Positions 6,929-53,912 of a stretch of DNA of 64,000 nt are shown piece by piece (the stretch's first letter is position 1; every line of letters starts with the position of its first letter). The DNA is from a virus. Under the pieces are notes generated by a model. The model was not told the DNA's origin, made no database searches, and saw only the letters and a program-made list of their open reading frames with translations. Location of the stretch: the IMG/VR virus record IMGVR_UViG_3300028859_000013, positions 47,324-111,323 of that record; one strand, given 5' to 3'. The position numbers and the translations under genes were made by a program.

Positions 6929-6973
6929 GATATTATATATTAAATTAAATATTTATTTTTTATATATAATGCT

Positions 6974-23791: not shown

Positions 23792-24839
23792 AATGATTAT
23801 CCGCAAAGTATGCAGTTCTAAATTTTAACTTTACTGTATGTTAAATGTTTAAAGTTTGATTCGTAAGATGCGGTAACAGCGAGTAATCTTTCAAAGGGGT
23901 CAAGGGGTATTTTGATCCGATTGAATTTGTAGCAAAATTCATTCAAATACCCTTGAAGGAATTCTGATTTTATACCGTGATACATATCATCAATCAATGA
24001 TTTTGCATTACTTATGGCTATGTGTACCCAAGGCAGTACCTTAGCGATTTTTTCAGGTGGAACAACCGAAGCATCGTGTTGGGCAAAATGGTCTTTGAAG
24101 TTCGTGTATGAGGTAGAGCCGTCAGTTGTAATTTTTGCATCTTTATCTATCGATGTATTTGCTTTCTGATCTATAGTTACTGCTTTTAAGTCGGGAATAA
24201 CTATCATTTTCAGATGATTGACCCGTTTAGGCTTTTGTGGGTTTTTGGGATTTTCAACCTGCTCACTTTCGACCATTACAAGTACTTTGCTTTTTTTCTG
24301 ACTGCCACGTCCACGTTTCAATGGTTCGTTTTTTCCTTTTTCATCTCGTTCGGTAGAGAAAAAGCCTTCATCAAGTTCTATCATCCCGGACAAGGTATAT
24401 TGGGCATCGCGTTGCCCCATTACACTACGGATCTTATGAAGCATTTCCCAAATGGGTTGATATCGTTTATGACCTAATTGTCGTTGCATCTCAGAGGCTG
24501 AAAAAGTCTTTTTTGTACTTGTCATCAAATGAATGGCTTTAAACCAATATAAAAAAGGCAATTTAGAACCGTGCATAATAGTGCCTGAACGTAAAGACCT
24601 ACGACAATGACAGGATTTACATTCAAAATGCATCGAAGCAGGTAACCATGTATGCTCTTTATTACCGCAATGAGGACATACAATACCGGATTTAATCCGC
24701 ATCTCTTTGAATTTTTCAATACAAACGGCTTCATTTGGGAAGTGTTTGTCAAAGTCTAATAGTTTCATATAACTGTTGATTTATTACTCTAAAGATACGA
24801 AATATTCTTGACAAAATGTGTTAAATGCGGATAATCATA
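23792..24839 (-). mobile_element. IS1595-family insertion sequence
   Basis: perfect 13-bp IR ATGATTATCCGCA; 8-bp direct repeat AAAATAAT on both sides; visibly higher GC than flanks. Confidence 0.92.
23818..24768 (-). CDS. IS1595-family DDE transposase
   Basis: CPHC..CKSC Zn ribbon, IELDEGF, KRGRGS, ITTDG, YLNEFCYKFNR. Confidence 0.93.
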   Translation of the reverse strand: MKLLDFDKHFPNEAVCIEKFKEMRIKSGIVCPHCGNKEHTWLPASMHFECKSCHCRRSLRSGTIMHGSKLPFLYWFKAIHLMTSTKKTFSASEMQRQLGHKRYQPIWEMLHKIRSVMGQRDAQYTLSGMIELDEGFFSTERDEKGKNEPLKRGRGSQKKSKVLVMVESEQVENPKNPQKPKRVNHLKMIVIPDLKAVTIDQKANTSIDKDAKITTDGSTSYTNFKDHFAQHDASVVPPEKIAKVLPWVHIAISNAKSLIDDMYHGIKSEFLQGYLNEFCYKFNRIKIPLDPFERLLAVTASYESNFKHLTYSKVKI

Positions 24840-26027: not shown

Positions 26028-26421
26028 ATTTAATGAGACATACGAAGAAATAATTCATATTGAAGGTAATGATGTATCAAATGATTCAGTACCAATAACA
26101 AATAATCGTGATATATTAACTTATATGGTTAATATTCAAACTGATGCATTTAAATCTCATAAATTAGTATTAACTAGTAATTTAATTGAACCTTTAACAA
26201 AAATTTTTGGTACTCAAAATAAAACAATGAGACTTGAGTTTATGACAAAGTTGTGGGTTTTAAAATTTAAAGATTTGACATTTAATGTTTATACAGCAAA
26301 GAATAGAGGAACATCTTATGAAGTTTGTGACTATTCATATGAAGATATTCGTACAGATAAATTATTAACAAAAAAAATTATAGAATTTTTAGATGAATTG
26401 TATAAATTAATAAACGAATAA
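26014..26421 (+). CDS. hypothetical protein
   Basis: 135 aa, MKVDKFNE start. Confidence 0.7.
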   Translation: MKVDKFNETYEEIIHIEGNDVSNDSVPITNNRDILTYMVNIQTDAFKSHKLVLTSNLIEPLTKIFGTQNKTMRLEFMTKLWVLKFKDLTFNVYTAKNRGTSYEVCDYSYEDIRTDKLLTKKIIEFLDELYKLINE

Positions 26422-26426
26422 ATAAT

Positions 26427-26768
26427 ATGAAAAAAGCTTATATCGTAAAACTAATTGATGGCGATAATGATACCATTATGAAACTTGTTGATCAGGAAAC
26501 TTGGAATTGGATAAATTTAGATAAATCTGGACAACCAACTCCTACTAAGGTGAAAAAATTTAAATTTTTTGCTACTGCTACTGGTGGTAGATGGGATGAT
26601 AAATTGTGTCCAGATTCAATCCGAGAACGGATCAAAAATGATACAGAATTAAATAATTGTATTTTTGATGGTGTTTGGATAACAGAAGGTACTTGGAACA
26701 ACGATAGAGCTATATTAGCACCAGCATTAGAAGATAATAACGAAGATTTTAAAAATAGAAAAAAATGA
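26427..26768 (+). CDS. hypothetical protein
   Basis: 113 aa ORF in operon. Confidence 0.65.
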   Translation: MKKAYIVKLIDGDNDTIMKLVDQETWNWINLDKSGQPTPTKVKKFKFFATATGGRWDDKLCPDSIRERIKNDTELNNCIFDGVWITEGTWNNDRAILAPALEDNNEDFKNRKK

Positions 26769-26840
26769 CTTTTTTTATATAATATATAAGAAAGTAGAAA
26801 ATAAAATAAACAAAATACAAATTTAAATATATACAATATC

Positions 26841-26939
26841 ATGAACAACATTAGTAGAAATATCACAGCAGTCACAACAACAACTACCCCCGCAGGAGGC
26901 AGACCAGTCGTGTATTTGGGTGATAATAATCTAAGTTGA
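26841..26939 (+). CDS. putative attenuator leader peptide MNNISRNITAVTTTTTPAGGRPVVYLGDNNLS
   Basis: 32-aa ORF (not in ORF track) with Thr run, followed by terminator, preceding tRNA array. Confidence 0.75.
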   Translation: MNNISRNITAVTTTTTPAGGRPVVYLGDNNLS

Positions 26940-27010
26940 TATTTTTATAAAATATTTTAATAGTGTTAAAAACCCAAAGATGATTATTCAACTTTGGGTT
27001 TTTTCTTTTT
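26915..27010 (+). promoter_or_regulatory. attenuator: antiterminator plus intrinsic terminator
   Basis: terminator AAAAACCCAAAG(26968-79)/CTTTGGGTTTTT(26992-27003) plus U tract; TTTGGGT (26915-21, inside leader) can alternatively pair with ACCCAAA (26972-78). Confidence 0.7.
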
Positions 27011-27022
27011 AAATAATTAATT

Positions 27023-27100
27023 GGTCCTGTATTGGCAGAATTTCCTAAATTCTATGTGCATAATGGAATGAAAATGAGAGTTCAAATCTCTTCTGGACTA
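27023..27100 (+). tRNA. atypical tRNA-Arg(CCT)-like, D-arm absent, D-loop-like segment 3' of anticodon arm
   Basis: GGTCCTG/CTGGACT acceptor; AGAAT-TTCCTAA-ATTCT; GAGAG-TTCAAAT-CTCTT. Confidence 0.65.
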
Positions 27101-27110
27101 CAATAAACAT

Positions 27111-27171
27111 CGGGAGTATGTGGTAGTGTCTCGGGTACCGACACAAGAAAGTTCGACTCTTTCTCTTCCGA
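27111..27171 (+). tRNA. D-armless tRNA-Pro-like gene (CGG/GGG in a 9-nt loop)
   Basis: CGGGAGT/TCTTCCG-A acceptor (C1:G72, A73); GTGTC-TCGGGTACC-GACAC; GAAAG-TTCGACT-CTTTC. Confidence 0.5.
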
Positions 27172-27188
27172 CAAAGGTTGAATTAAAT

Positions 27189-27261
27189 ATGGATGTAGTT
27201 CAGTAGGTAGAATGCTTGGTTTGGGACCAAGTGGTCGGGATTTCGAGCATCCCCATCCATA
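27189..27261 (+). tRNA. tRNA-Pro(TGG)
   Basis: full cloverleaf, CTTGG-TTTGGGA-CCAAG; unusual A1:U72. Confidence 0.88.
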
Positions 27262-27272
27262 CATATAATAAT

Positions 27273-27349
27273 AGTCCTGTAATGGCATGGTTTTCTAAAC
27301 CATAAGTGCATAACGGATGTGAATGTGGGTTCGAATCCCATCAGGATTA
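27273..27349 (+). tRNA. atypical tRNA-Arg(TCT)-like, D-arm absent, D-loop-like hairpin 3' of anticodon arm
   Basis: AGTCCTG/CAGGATT; ATGGT-TTTCTAA-ACCAT; GTGGG-TTCGAAT-CCCAT. Confidence 0.7.
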
Positions 27350-27358
27350 CAAAAATAA

Positions 27359-27433
27359 GGGGGCTCATGTTCCAAGGCTCGGCGATGAATATTTGCAATA
27401 TTTGTGAGGTGAATCCGATTTTCACAGTCTCCA
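27359..27433 (+). tRNA. tRNA-Ala(TGC), atypical D and T loops
   Basis: GGGGGCT/AGTCTCC with G3:U70; GAATA-TTTGCAA-TATTT. Confidence 0.75.
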
Positions 27434-27467
27434 CTATTTTTTGTTGGGTTCAAAATGATTATAATTT

Positions 27468-27542
27468 GCAGATATAGTATAACGGCTAGTACATAACATT
27501 GCCAATGTTAAGATACCTTTTCGAGTAAGGTTATCTGCTCCA
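27468..27542 (+). tRNA. tRNA-Gly(GCC)
   Basis: cloverleaf, TAACA-TTGCCAA-TGTTA, U73, encoded CCA. Confidence 0.9.
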
Positions 27543-27638
27543 AGTATTTATGGACATTTTTTATTAATAAGTGAAAATAATAGTTCGTTTTTGAGTTTAT
27601 GCTCATCAATATTTTTATATATACAAATAAAAAGTTGT

Positions 27639-28808
27639 ATGGTAGAATATTGTAAATTTTGTGGTAAAGACATTAAGGATTTAAAGCCAACACAAAAAGG
27701 TCAGCATGTTGCAAATTGTAGCATGAATCCAAATATAAAAATAATTAAGGATAAAAGAGCATTATCAAAAATAGAAACACAGAGAGCAAAAAATCCAATA
27801 TTGAAAATTAAGTTGAGATGCTTAAATTGTAATGAGGAATTTGAAATTGATGTGATTGAAAGTTATTATAAACGTGGTAGGTATAAAAAATGTTGTTGCG
27901 AAAAATGTGCAAAGCAATATTCAACAAAAAATTATGATGACGATATATTAAAAAAAGATTTTTGTAAAGAATGTGGAGAAGAATTTTTAGTTAAAAATAG
28001 AACAAAAATAGGTATATCAACATGTACAAAATGTAGAAAATTAAAAAGAAATAGAGGCAAAAATATAAAAAATATTAATAAAAAACTTGGTGATAAAAAT
28101 ATTATAGAAAAAATATTAGTATGTAAATTTTGTGGTGACGAAAAATGTAAAAAACCAGAAGTGTGTTCAAAATTTAGACAAAAAAATAATGTTTATGAAA
28201 AATATTTAGGTTTTGATAGTAGTAAAAAAGGAAATAATGATGTGTATACTGAGTTTGATAGAATTATAAATGAATTAAAATTTGATTATTTTGATAAAGA
28301 ATTGTCTATTGTTGAAATAAGCAAAAAGTATAATATGAATTATAAATCTATGTATTTAATATTTAAAAAGAATAATATTGTTATTAGAACATTTTCTGAA
28401 GCTGTAATGAATTCTATTAAAAATGGAAAAATAAATTATAATAATATAGTGCAATATCCATATAAATCTGGAATGTATATAACATGGAAAGGTGATAACG
28501 TACATTATAGAAGCAATTATGAGAAAGAATATTATTCTATTTTGGATGATAAAAAAGTGAATTATGAAGTTGAAAGTTTAAGAATACAATATTATGATAC
28601 ACAAAAGAAAAAAATAAGAATTGCAATACCAGATATTTATATTAAAGAAATAAATGAAATTATTGAGATAAAAAGTAAATGGACTTTGAATGAAATAAAT
28701 ATGAAAGATAAAGTAAAATCATATAAAAAACTAGGATATAATGTTAGATTGATTGTTGGTGAAGGAAATAAGAATTTTTTTAAAAATACAATTGATATAA
28801 TATATTAA
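27639..28808 (+). CDS. Zn-finger plus TnsA-like PD-(D/E)XK endonuclease in tRNA array
   Basis: multiple CxxC; YRSNYE..PDIYI..IIEIKS; likely ATG start 27639. Confidence 0.75.
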   Translation: MVEYCKFCGKDIKDLKPTQKGQHVANCSMNPNIKIIKDKRALSKIETQRAKNPILKIKLRCLNCNEEFEIDVIESYYKRGRYKKCCCEKCAKQYSTKNYDDDILKKDFCKECGEEFLVKNRTKIGISTCTKCRKLKRNRGKNIKNINKKLGDKNIIEKILVCKFCGDEKCKKPEVCSKFRQKNNVYEKYLGFDSSKKGNNDVYTEFDRIINELKFDYFDKELSIVEISKKYNMNYKSMYLIFKKNNIVIRTFSEAVMNSIKNGKINYNNIVQYPYKSGMYITWKGDNVHYRSNYEKEYYSILDDKKVNYEVESLRIQYYDTQKKKIRIAIPDIYIKEINEIIEIKSKWTLNEINMKDKVKSYKKLGYNVRLIVGEGNKNFFKNTIDIIY

Positions 28809-28813
28809 AATAT

Positions 28814-28884
28814 GCAAAATGTAGCTTAACGGTAAAGTATCTGATTTCCAATCAGAAGACGGGGCTCAACACCCACATTTTGCT
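28814..28884 (+). tRNA. tRNA-Gly(TCC), atypical 8-bp acceptor and short T stem
   Basis: GCAAAATG/CATTTTGC; TCTGA-TTTCCAA-TCAGA; T loop CTCAACA. Confidence 0.75.
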
Positions 28885-28891
28885 CATAATC

Positions 28892-28964
28892 AGGACTTTA
28901 GCTCAGTTGGTAGAGCGCAACTATTACAAAGTTGATGTCATCGGTTCGATTCCGATAAGTCCTA
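28892..28964 (+). tRNA. tRNA-Val(TAC)
   Basis: cloverleaf, CAACT-ATTACAA-AGTTG. Confidence 0.92.
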
Positions 28965-28975
28965 CGAAAATAATT

Positions 28976-29046
28976 GCACTTATCGTATAATGATATTACT
29001 TTGGCGTTGTATACCAAAAATTTCGGTTTGATCCCGAATAGGTGCT
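28976..29046 (+). tRNA. tRNA-Thr(TGT), divergent
   Basis: GCACTTA/TAGGTGC; TTGGC-GTTGTAT-ACCAA; TTCGG-TTTGATC-CCGAA. Confidence 0.7.
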
Positions 29047-29090
29047 CAATAAAATAAACTTTTATTTTATTTTTTAATATATAAACATAT

Positions 29091-29163
29091 GCCATTATGA
29101 TGTAATGGATTAGCATTAAAACCTTCTAAGTTTTTCGTCAGCGTTCGAATCGCTGTAATGGTA
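29091..29163 (+). tRNA. tRNA-Arg(TCT)
   Basis: cloverleaf, AAAAC-CTTCTAA-GTTTT, D loop AATGGATT. Confidence 0.92.
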
Positions 29164-29164
29164 C

Positions 29165-29206
29165 AAAAATAAAAATCAATCATTATTATGATTGATTTTT
29201 ATTTTT
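29165..29206 (+). terminator. terminator closing the tRNA array
   Basis: AAAAATAAAAATCAATCAT/ATGATTGATTTTTATTTTT. Confidence 0.75.
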
Positions 29207-29319
29207 AATTAAATAATTTTTACAAATTGAATTTATTTCCGTTATATAAAAGTTCTAATTTTTCAGGTAATTTATATATTTTCACATTATATTATATATT
29301 AATTTTTATATATAGATTT

Positions 29320-30024
29320 ATGGAATATATTAAGAATTATAATAATTACAATGATGATATAATTTTAGAAAAATTAAATCTTAAATCTCTTTTAGATACA
29401 TTTAAATCGTTGAATAGTAAAAAAGTAGCTACTTTTATAGTAGGTGGACTTTTGACTATGATGACTGTTACACAAACAATAAATTATATAAACAATTTAA
29501 ATTTAAATGCTAATCAGAAAATAACATTAATACATACTGTTGATAAATTTAAAGATCCATTAAGTTTTGGAGTTAGTAATTTTATATATGAGCATATCAA
29601 AAACCACGAAAAATTAAAATTAAAGGCATATAGATTAAAAGATAATAAAATAACTATAGGATTTGGTCATGCTGAAAATATTGGAGAATCTAAATTTAAA
29701 ATTGGAGATCAAATAACTAAAGAACAAGCAGATCAATTATTTGAACAAGATTTACAATTTGCATATGATGGAGTTAGACGTATATTTAAAGAATGGAATA
29801 AAAAAGGAATCAATATAAAATTAACACAAAATCAGTTTGATGTTTTAGTGTCATTAGCATTTAATATGGGAATTGATAATTTAAGAACTTCAGATTTTAT
29901 TCAAGCATTAAAACGTAAAGATATTAAGAATGCATCAGAATTGATAAAAATTACTGGATTACGTGATGGATTTGCTGGATTAGTTGATAGAAGAGAAGAA
30001 GAATATAATATATTTATATCATAA
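29320..30024 (+). CDS. GH24 phage lysozyme with N-terminal extension
   Basis: HE..KAY..D..TIGFGH, LTQNQFDVLVSLAFNMG, GLVDRREEE; likely ATG start 29320. Confidence 0.88.
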   Translation: MEYIKNYNNYNDDIILEKLNLKSLLDTFKSLNSKKVATFIVGGLLTMMTVTQTINYINNLNLNANQKITLIHTVDKFKDPLSFGVSNFIYEHIKNHEKLKLKAYRLKDNKITIGFGHAENIGESKFKIGDQITKEQADQLFEQDLQFAYDGVRRIFKEWNKKGINIKLTQNQFDVLVSLAFNMGIDNLRTSDFIQALKRKDIKNASELIKITGLRDGFAGLVDRREEEYNIFIS

Positions 30025-30878: not shown

Positions 30879-31243
30879 TGGTGGAGATGTCGGCATACAA
30901 TAGCCGAGTCCAATATTGCCTTTCAGCATTTTCTACAAGTTTAGTTCATTTTTTCTAAAATAAACAAAAATACATAATTTTTAAATGATAATTATTAAAT
31001 TCATCAAACATTTTTACACCTTAAAATAGTTTGCTAACAAGGTTTCTGATTTTAGACCGATTAGGCTACTAAAACTTCATTACCAACAACAGCTTCAGAA
31101 ACTGCGAAAGTTGTATTAGAAGTTAAAATATGCGTATGTGCTTTGCCATTTAAATTTTACCCATTAATTTATTAATCGCTGATAGATAATGCGATACTTG
31201 CTGATAACCTTATTCTACATTACTGTCAAAATCGTTCATCCCC
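30879..31243 (-). ncRNA. ssrA: tmRNA
   Basis: 5' GGGGATG..TTTTGAC, 3' CATCTCC-A-CCA with G3:U70; internal tag ORF 31147-31061 GKAHTHILTSNTTFAVSEAVVGNEVLVA*. Confidence 0.88.
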
Positions 31244-37122: not shown

Positions 37123-37195
37123 GGATCATTAGCCAAGTCGTTACGGCATCTGGCTCATAACCAGAAGATCGTTGGTTCGATTCCAACATGATCCA
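37123..37195 (+). tRNA. tRNA(CAT), Met or Ile2
   Basis: GGATCAT/ATGATCC; TCTGG-CTCATAA-CCAGA; GTTGG-TTCGATT-CCAAC. Confidence 0.9.
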
Positions 37196-37241: not shown

Positions 37242-37403
37242 ATGAAAAAAGTAATTTTAATGATCGCAGTTATTGCTGCTTTTACATTTGCTTCTTGTAC
37301 TCCAAAGAGTGCAAAATCTACAACTCCTGCTCAGGATTCAATTTCTGCTGTTGATTCAGCTAGTGTTGATACAGTAGCAGTTGATACTGTAGTAGCAAAG
37401 TAA
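37242..37403 (+). CDS. small lipoprotein
   Basis: MKKVILMIAVIAAFTFAS-C lipobox, then Ala/Asp/Ser/Thr/Val-rich tail; 53 aa, below ORF-track cutoff. Confidence 0.8.
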   Translation: MKKVILMIAVIAAFTFASCTPKSAKSTTPAQDSISAVDSASVDTVAVDTVVAK

Positions 37404-37538
37404 CAAATTTGTAAATAATTTGCGAAAATAAAAAAATCTGTATTTTTTAATACAGATTTTTTTATTTTCTATAAACTTGTAATATTTTTTGTACTATTAT
37501 TGATAACTCAGTTGTTGAATATATAGGAGAAAAAATAT

Positions 37539-47032: not shown

Positions 47033-47338
47033 TTAATAATAAACTTTTATTTTTTTAGATCCATTTTCAAAATTTTTATTCCAAACAATTCTTGTTTTAT
47101 TATCTTGAAAATCATCAAATTCAGTCCATGCAGTTTTATGCGTACCTTCATTATAACCATTCAAAGTAGATTTAATATAACCCCTTGCTTTTATTTCTAA
47201 TTTTTTATCCTCAGATTTAACTATCTTAAAATATGTTATTAGAGTAGTTGGGTTATCCTTTATATCTCTAATAATTATTTTATAATCTACATTTACATAT
47301 TTTCCTGTTCCTTCTAAAAATTCTTTGAAATTTTTCAT
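47033..47338 (-). CDS. CTS-like protein
   Basis: start moved to MKNFKEFLE. Confidence 0.7.
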   Translation of the reverse strand: MKNFKEFLEGTGKYVNVDYKIIIRDIKDNPTTLITYFKIVKSEDKKLEIKARGYIKSTLNGYNEGTHKTAWTEFDDFQDNKTRIVWNKNFENGSKKIKVYY

Positions 47339-53765: not shown

Positions 53766-53912
53766 AAAAATTATTTATTTTTTATTATATATAAATAAAA
53801 TAATTTAAATTTATTTTTGTCAAAAAATGAGTTTTTTTAATTAATATATAATCTCAGAAAACATATAAAAATCATTAAAAGATGCAACATAAAAACATAA
53901 TAAATTAAAAAC

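Follow-up and report, generated by a model that had tools for sequence, protein, structure and literature searches.

In the thrL (Thr/Ile), ilvGMEDA (Ile/Leu/Val), trpL, hisL, pheL, and leuL leaders, a short open reading frame (ORF) carries control codons that are tied to the function of the genes downstream. In leaders of the thrL/ilvGMEDA/trpL type, an intrinsic terminator lies just downstream of this ORF, and an alternative pairing is made through its 5′ arm. Here, we describe an element of similar layout that stands in front of a tRNA array in a virus genome, the IMG/VR record IMGVR_UViG_3300028859_000013. The window that was analyzed is a 64,000-nucleotide (nt) stretch (positions 47,324 to 111,323 of the record) and forms the right-hand part of a genome of 111,323 nt with 23% G+C; all positions below are those of the window unless another genome is named. 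The element comprises a 32-codon leader ORF, an intrinsic terminator, and a downstream array of ten tRNA and tRNA-like genes (Table 1). On the sequence comparisons described below, we consider it likely that the element is a ribosome-mediated (leader-peptide) transcription attenuator that gates the phage tRNA array.

The thr and ilv leaders already sense more than one amino acid, and the leader in the window samples six. It differs from the enterobacterial leaders in that the regulated genes are tRNAs rather than enzymes and the product would act directly on the signal. It also differs in layout: the ATG is predicted to lie at or near the 5′ end of the transcript, the stop codon falls past the antiterminator strand, and no 1:2 pause hairpin is detectable. 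None of the Rfam Thr, His, Leu, and Trp leader families matches in 26400-29500 at E values up to 10, and neither does a T-box at the same threshold. The T-box leaders of Firmicutes likewise respond to the state of tRNA by choosing between terminator and antiterminator, but they bind uncharged tRNA directly via a specifier codon, without translation, and control synthetase and amino-acid genes. In the available part of the report on mycobacterial leaderless polycysteine ORFs, the codon content of a leaderless short ORF sets downstream expression, as we propose here, whereas a single amino acid is involved, the genes are cysteine-related protein genes, and the organism is a bacterium (bioRxiv 10.1101/834739). 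The silent tRNA operon of Anabaena PCC 7120 is likewise an accessory tRNA array, expressed under translational stress much as we propose for the array here (PMC8421152, available part), but is controlled by the transcriptional repressor TrcR and not by a leader peptide with a terminator (PMC10272220, available part). The reasons for which phages have tRNA genes, and the means by which they control them, have been debated for decades, with codon compensation on one side and escape from tRNA-cutting defences on the other (PMC10264068, PMC11555353). Our literature search returned attenuators of amino-acid and resistance genes, the Cys-sensing ORFs, the repressor-controlled tRNA operon, and studies of phage tRNAs as a counter to tRNA-cutting defences, and no description of attenuation of tRNA arrays.

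The earlier note on this DNA had placed a 32-amino-acid ORF at 26841-26939, 28 nt ahead of a terminator, and these coordinates agree with ours. It had also listed codons 9-24 (ACA, GCA, GTC, ACA, ACA, ACA, ACT, ACC, CCC, GCA, GGA, GGC, AGA, CCA, GTC, GTG) as limited to Thr, Ala, Val, Pro, Gly, and Arg, the same six that the downstream tRNAs carry. This claim is borne out, and the 16-codon run is the longest of its kind in the six frames of the whole 111,323-nt genome; the next are its own antisense, with 12 codons, and then runs of 8. A caveat attached to the claim, that GC-rich hairpin DNA tends to encode Gly, Ala, Pro, and Arg, did not survive: mononucleotide shuffles of the 48 nt of the run equal it at a rate of 5e-6 (5 per million), so G+C content alone is insufficient for the codon match, and GC composition was ruled out as its cause. 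Plus-strand RNA structure was likewise ruled out as the reason for the GC-rich run (leader z -0.24). Several of the codons had been called rare in this phage. This is true of GTC, GTG, ACC, CCC, and GGC, which make up 2-6% of their own families, but ACA, GCA, GGA, AGA, CCA, and ACT are, by codon usage, the phage's commonest codons for their amino acids. In all, nine of the 16 codons in the run are the commonest for the respective amino acid, and the anticodons of the array aim at those. With the anticodons read by hand, about 11 of the 16 can be read by the array under standard wobble.

The earlier note had suggested that leader codons might co-vary with tRNA content in other phages. In LR745206.1, an unrelated phage of 635 kb with 30% G+C and 61 tRNAs in several arrays, some odd tRNAs are in common with the window, and seven leaders match both their own tRNA block and their own terminator arm. 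Each of these seven blocks lies behind an ORF of 16-38 codons, which is followed by a terminator with its end 2-12 nt short of the first tRNA; in the Glu/Tyr cassette, the terminator adjoins an unrecognised tRNA-like sequence that is not called a tRNA. A 16-codon leader with seven Gln codons precedes a block of three tRNA-Gln genes, and a leader with nine Ser and two Arg codons precedes a block for Arg and Ser. The Tyr- and Glu-rich leader stands before Glu and Tyr; the leader with His, Phe, Lys, and Trp before His, Phe, Trp, and Lys; the Ile- and Gly-rich leader before Ile, Gly, Met, and Gly; the leader with Pro, Asp, and Gln before Pro and Asp; and the leader with Asn, Leu, Thr, Val, and Ile before a long block of these. 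The true assignment of leaders to blocks is the single best of 5040 permutations and, when the cassette of the window is included, of 40,320. By a crude count over the whole peptide, the window leader scores 0.58 for its own set versus 0.65 for the large Asn/Arg/Leu/Val/Ile/Thr set, while within codons 9-24 it scores 16/16 for its own set.

The helices of LR745206.1 follow the same assignment. Within the own leader region, the 5′ arm of each terminator pairs best with codons 16-30 (Fisher p 2e-5); the weakest pairing, in cassette E, extends past the stop codon. The pairing site falls within the last third of the leader and directly follows the block-specific codons on their 3′ side. Pairing with the own arm is superior to pairing with swapped arms in every one of 40,320 permutations except 19, the cassette of the window being part of this test; judged from these pairings, the preference amounts to helix-level co-variation. 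Three of the seven leaders have peptide-conserved orthologues in other IMG/VR contigs, and the three contigs that are sufficiently long have matching blocks. Five of the seven ORFs have a promoter motif ahead of them, at a distance of 7 nt from the ATG in three cassettes (A, C, D) and of 10 nt in B. The LR745206.1 family and the window have in common AATATATA 7 nt before the ATG, an Asn/Ile/Ser/Thr-rich peptide start, a terminator built on AAACCC...GGGTTTTTT, and a tRNA block within about 20 nt of the terminator. They differ in that LR745206.1 has at least seven cassettes, whereas the window has one cassette for one six-amino-acid array, now interrupted by an endonuclease gene and with internal promoter-like motifs added.

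The same layout is found in phiCbK, a phage of Caulobacter, although this phage is GC-rich and uses promoters of sigma-70-like type. Here, the annotated 45-codon gp083 and an annotated terminator precede Pro, Pro, Lys, Lys, three Leu, and two Ser tRNAs, and a 32-codon ORF and a terminator precede Phe, Val, Ile, Ile, Val, Gln, and Gln. The two leaders are reciprocal in content (23:1 vs 3:10, Fisher 8e-6), and the 32-codon ORF contains a 10/11 copy of the 3′ arm of its own terminator. In a further genome, LR756501.1, clear leaders were not seen before the tRNAs.

Close relatives of the window were found by pattern (promoter motif, spacing, and first leader codons), which returned five IMG/VR contigs. 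The earlier note had tied its proposal to a conserved leader ORF. The ORF is kept in all five contigs, with 33 codons in L022 and L027 and 36 codons in L023, L024, and L025, and it stays open despite in-frame indels of 3 and 9 nt. The residues that are replaced or inserted in the sensor run are all Thr, Ala, Val, or Gly, one Asn excepted, so that the run stays within the six amino acids but for that residue. Variation is concentrated in this run. Variable columns number 8/90 in the promoter region, 1/24 in codons 1-8, 1/27 from codon 25 to the stop, 0/28 in the spacer (four distinct alleles), and 2/38 plus one gapped in the terminator. By contrast, codons 9-24 have 10 variable and 12 gapped of 60 columns (22/60 vs 0-9% in the flanks) and vary five to ten times more than the flanks. 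On these columns, the conservation pattern is that expected for interchangeable sensor codons, and neither a functional peptide nor untranslated DNA fits it. The cassettes are 91-93% identical to that of the window, compared with 78.7% for the upstream protein genes, and their arrays of 11-14 tRNAs cover the same six amino acids.

The alternative pairing that the earlier note had pointed out, TTTGGGT in codons 25-27 with ACCCAAA in the left arm of the terminator, is present. The complement occupies 26972-26978, inside the 5′ arm (26968-26979; the 3′ arm is 26992-27003), and the duplex of 26915-26921 with 26972-26978 is worth -7.7 to -9.5 kcal/mol, as against -17.3 kcal/mol (z -5.9) for the terminator, which separates the leader ORF from the first tRNA-like gene (start 27023). 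By chance, a 7-mer complementary to the terminator 5′ arm would occur somewhere in the 121-nt leader with a probability of 0.013, and a shuffle of duplex energies gives p 0.006. In the close relatives, TTTGGGT is invariant and the terminator nearly so, and they offer no base-pair covariation. One contig from RNA libraries bridges the terminator (26910-27058), which we take as a hint only. Another, of 117 nt, matches 26910-26939 and then continues into unrelated sequence right past the stop codon; it may reflect a variant context or a chimera.

The AT-only motif AATATATA, with a T run before it, recurs intergenically in this genome, often 4-7 nt ahead of gene ATGs, with further sites at 6934 (-), 33407 (+), and 36707 (+). 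Within the cassette, it lies 7 nt ahead of the leader ATG (P2) and inside a 39-nt element further upstream (P1). A promoter-like motif also stands exactly 7 nt ahead of the 5′ ends of tRNA-Gly(TCC) at 28814 and tRNA-Arg(TCT) at 29091 (P4 and P5). The same spacing before the 5′ ends of tRNAs argues for a promoter and not a translation signal, and it suggests to us that AATATATA is a phage-specific promoter that gives leaderless mRNAs and tRNAs without a 5′ leader. The spacing from motif to start is reminiscent of a T4 late promoter. Transcription from P2 would then begin about 7-8 nt past the motif, giving a predicted leader mRNA that is leaderless or nearly so. An RNA-library contig that starts at 26840 agrees with this start, a weak hint since contigs cannot prove a start; the tRNA genes have no cover in the RNA-library contigs, none of which shows a transcript level, start, or end. 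Elsewhere in the same genome, the 39-nt element has a copy of 90% identity at 63897-63935 and a similar sequence at 53822-53851; in the five related contigs it is invariant except for one base.

We propose that transcription would begin at phage-type promoters, P1 near 26781 and P2 at 26826-26833. Since a transcript from P2 would have the ATG at its very 5′ end or directly beside it, a ribosome could load as soon as the RNA emerges. It would decode the eight conserved codons and then the 16-codon run for Thr, Ala, Val, Pro, Gly, and Arg. When decoding is fast, the ribosome would cover TTTGGGT as the terminator is made, and the hairpin would form and stop transcription before the first tRNA gene. 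When decoding is slow because usable tRNA of any of these kinds is short, the ribosome would stall between codon 9 and about codon 20 and leave TTTGGGT free to pair with ACCCAAA of the terminator 5′ arm, and the polymerase would continue into the tRNA genes. The outcome would be a negative feedback, with phage tRNAs produced up to the point at which the codons they serve are decoded quickly. We infer from the sequence that the ORF is translated, and likewise where transcription starts, which way the switch works, and what depletes the tRNAs. Depletion might come from a host that decodes the phage's A-ending codons poorly, from amino-acid shortage, or from anticodon nucleases.

If this is true, phages gauge decoding speed and set their tRNA supply by feedback, and the classic attenuation logic of trp and his extends from amino-acid supply to the tRNA pool. 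A broader view, which we put forward tentatively and regard as a possibility short of an even chance, is that phages of different size and lineage (the window phage, a peat myovirus of roughly 110-130 kb, the 635-kb phage, and phiCbK) share a programmable sensor. Its hypervariable run would be rewritten to follow the tRNA block, and each block would be on only when its own codons stall ribosomes, with host anticodon nucleases as one trigger, which would make the device an on-demand counter-defence of the kind that the earlier note had proposed. The locus offers a convenient test case, with one cassette, a control region of 270 nt, natural alleles that vary in nothing but the sensor run, relatives that have or lack internal promoters, and a predicted leaderless start that is easily rebuilt in a reporter.

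A number of observations weigh against the attenuator as proposed. The antiterminator is short (7 bp), a weak local hairpin of 26914-26921 with 26929-36 competes with it, and, for the window alone, one foreign terminator arm out-pairs its own arm. The earlier note had suggested folding the leader with the ribosome footprint masked. In nascent-transcript folds, the alternative pairing wins solely for a stall near codon 9, while equilibrium folds retain the terminator under every ribosome mask tried, and the models are not separated by these folds. Whereas the stop codon of trpL adjoins the antiterminator strand, the one here lies 16 nt past it, which requires a kinetic switch. On the decoding side, about five of the 16 run codons (GTC twice, ACC, CCC, and ACT) are without a standard cognate in the array, and tracking at the level of single codons is not seen: the window has GTC without tRNA-Val(AAC), and L023 has that tRNA without GTC. 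Because the arrays of all close relatives serve the same six amino acids, a distant phage was needed to look for co-variation of content. Of the six proximal genes, four are tRNA-likes of aberrant form, and the Thr and Val tRNAs of the window, which match nine of the 16 codons, stand behind promoter-like motifs of their own.

The last point bears on a caution in the earlier note, that the distal tRNAs might be driven independently from a promoter downstream of the terminator. It holds in part for this phage, in which motifs stand before tRNA-Gly(TCC) and tRNA-Arg(TCT), and the Gly(TCC), Val, Thr, and Arg(TCT) tRNAs are probably supplied separately from these. It does not extend to the relatives: no promoter motif was found inside the array in L023 or L027, the endonuclease-like gene of the window is absent, the L023 array is uninterrupted, and that of L027 has two different inserted ORFs. 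The ancestral unit would therefore have been two promoters, a leader, a terminator, and the whole array, and by this comparison it was the window's lineage that acquired the endonuclease-like gene and both internal motifs.

An attenuator could also work with the opposite or a more general logic, in which read-through needs leader translation, or the leader senses general translation capacity or amino-acid supply; we consider this unlikely. A ribosome at the stop codon would mask 26929-36 with TTTGGGT just behind its footprint, and the position of the stop codon downstream of the antiterminator strand, unlike in trpL, would suit such a scheme. The result, however, would be a positive feedback on tRNA supply without an obvious use, and the alternative partner lies consistently just 3′ of the block-specific codons, which fits stall-induced exposure. 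Likewise, a shortage of charged tRNA brought about by amino-acid starvation would stall ribosomes as tRNA loss does, but a sensor of general conditions would not need leaders written in the amino acids of their own blocks.

Quite improbable, in our judgment, is that the ORF and terminator form an independent small unit with a leaky constitutive terminator, be it a gene for a tiny protein or an ORF that is vestigial, and that the codon match is a low-complexity by-product of the kind seen in the phage's own protein linkers. The peptide has no homologues beyond close relatives: none was found among 1.84 billion protein representatives, bar low-complexity Thr-rich matches, and tblastn and blastn gave nothing in cultured phages. 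Neither an exact 23-mer of the run nor its back-translated pattern had a match in viral contigs, no paralogue of the leader occurs elsewhere in the genome, and no look-alike of the run was seen in the other sequence windows compared. The genome has other GC-rich low-complexity coding islands, and the six amino acids all have family-box, G/C-rich codons, which would be favoured both by a GC-rich stretch and by a tRNA set for A-ending codons. The antiterminator, moreover, is never strongly favoured by equilibrium folding. These points are met by the shuffles, in which composition fails to explain the run, and by the recurrence of the layout with block-specific amino acids in LR745206.1 and phiCbK. 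A functional peptide is hard to reconcile with a centre that is the most variable stretch of the cassette and yet stays in frame and within six amino acids. A vestigial ORF would not stay open across two indels, nor would it be expected between non-coding flanks whose conservation exceeds that of the adjacent genes.

A non-coding RNA or DNA element with an incidental open frame, either a small RNA that ends at the terminator or a minus-strand hairpin, is very improbable: the T4 tRNA region does retain small stable RNAs of unknown role, and the minus strand of 26884-26902 can form an 8-bp hairpin (-13.9 kcal/mol, z -2.7), but this hairpin falls within the hypervariable part and does not stay intact in relatives, no minus-strand gene lies up to 3 kb to its right, the plus-strand leader has no more structure than its shuffled versions and has no Rfam match, and in-frame indels with set-restricted substitutions indicate translation.

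The array behind the leader was called with ARAGORN (default, 80% threshold, and mitochondrial mode) and Rfam. The earlier note had listed ten genes, and ten tRNA or tRNA-like genes for Arg, Pro, Ala, Gly, Val, and Thr are indeed present, four called by ARAGORN in default mode, three more by Rfam, two more under relaxed settings, and one in mitochondrial mode. The last, at 27111-27172, had been given as Pro, whereas its identity is Pro or Thr; its acceptor and T arm are visible in the sequence.

Table 1. Coordinates of the leader cassette, the tRNA array, and associated features in the window
Feature	Position	Strand	Call or basis
Conserved promoter-associated element, 39 nt; contains P1 AATATATA at 26781-26788	26751..26789	+	
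Promoter-like P2 AATATATA, 7 nt ahead of leader ATG	26826..26833	+	
Leader ORF, 32 codons and stop	ATG 26841, TGA 26937-26939	+	Sequence and ORF list
Sensor run, codons 9-24, 16 codons (Thr6 Ala2 Val3 Pro2 Gly2 Arg1)	26865..26912	+	
Putative antiterminator 5′ strand TTTGGGT, codons 25-27, copy of terminator 3′ arm	26915..26921	+	
Spacer from stop codon to terminator, 28 nt, non-coding, AT-rich	26940..26967	+	
Intrinsic terminator, 12-bp stem, 12-nt loop, T-rich tract to 27010	26968..27010	+	
tRNA-like Arg(CCT), no D arm, long insert after anticodon arm	27023..27100 (about)	+	ARAGORN 80%; not Rfam
Minimal tRNA-like, 61 nt, 9-nt anticodon loop, Pro or Thr	27111..27172	+	ARAGORN mitochondrial mode only (Thr-GGT)
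tRNA-Pro(TGG)	27189..27262	+	ARAGORN default; Rfam 63 bits
tRNA-like Arg(TCT), no D arm, long insert	27273..27349	+	Rfam 34.9 bits; ARAGORN relaxed
tRNA-Ala(TGC)-like, G3:U70 acceptor pair, irregular D region	27360..27434	+	ARAGORN 80% and mitochondrial
tRNA-Gly(GCC)	27468..27542	+	ARAGORN default; Rfam
Endonuclease-like gene, 389 amino acids, splits array	27639..28808	+	Weak PHROG matches, one an endonuclease family
Internal promoter-like P4 AATATATT, 7 nt ahead of tRNA-Gly(TCC)	28799..28806	+	
tRNA-Gly(TCC)	28814..28884	+	Rfam 47.6 bits; ARAGORN relaxed
tRNA-Val(TAC)	28892..28965	+	ARAGORN default; Rfam
tRNA-Thr(TGT)	28976..29047	+	Rfam 41.8 bits; ARAGORN relaxed
Internal promoter-like P5 AATATATA, 7 nt ahead of tRNA-Arg(TCT)	29076..29083	+	
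tRNA-Arg(TCT), canonical	29091..29164	+	ARAGORN default; Rfam
Array-closing terminator, -18.4 kcal/mol, z -7.8	29165..29206	+	

The two Arg-type tRNA-likes that lack a D arm have an insert of 21-22 nt after the anticodon arm. Matches of 82% to the Arg-type tRNA-like occur in a 735-kb phage and in Streptomyces phages, and a pattern built for the odd tRNA-Arg found no match. The two other large genomes, LR745206.1 (2881-2949 and 3214-3337) and LR756501.1 (3618-3716), contain tRNA-likes missed by ARAGORN as well as Rfam tRNA matches of 99-124 nt, which may contain insertions. The endonuclease-like gene of the window is 65-71% identical at the nucleotide level to Lak megaphages of Prevotella, and its place inside the array recalls the homing endonuclease genes in the T4 tRNA region.

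The gene ahead of the cassette (26427-26768, 113 amino acids) is about 30 C-terminal residues short relative to all homologues, and near-identical strains in peat RNA libraries hold a full-length version of it. We rejected insertion of the tRNA cassette into the 3′ end of this gene: the relatives carry the cassette at the same place after a full-length gene, so it is the window that has lost about 300 nt. This deletion fuses the gene to the promoter element of the cassette, and homology to the full-length gene of the relatives stops just ahead of the 26751-26789 element.

The window encodes a tail sheath, a portal, and several homing endonucleases, from which we take the phage to be myovirus-like, and the standard genetic code suits it. 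The stretch is present in metagenome DNA runs from peat, permafrost, and soil. No tmRNA was found by ARAGORN over the whole window, 30879-31243 included, and the tRNA-Met at 37123 has neither a leader nor a terminator in front. An IS1595-family transposase gene (Pfam DDE_Tnp_IS1595, 3.6e-23) lies at 23818-24768 on the minus strand, inside an island of 35-44% G+C. Behind the tRNA-Met, a small ORF at 37243-37404 encodes a likely lipoprotein, with a signal peptide and a lipobox-like Ala-Ser-Cys.

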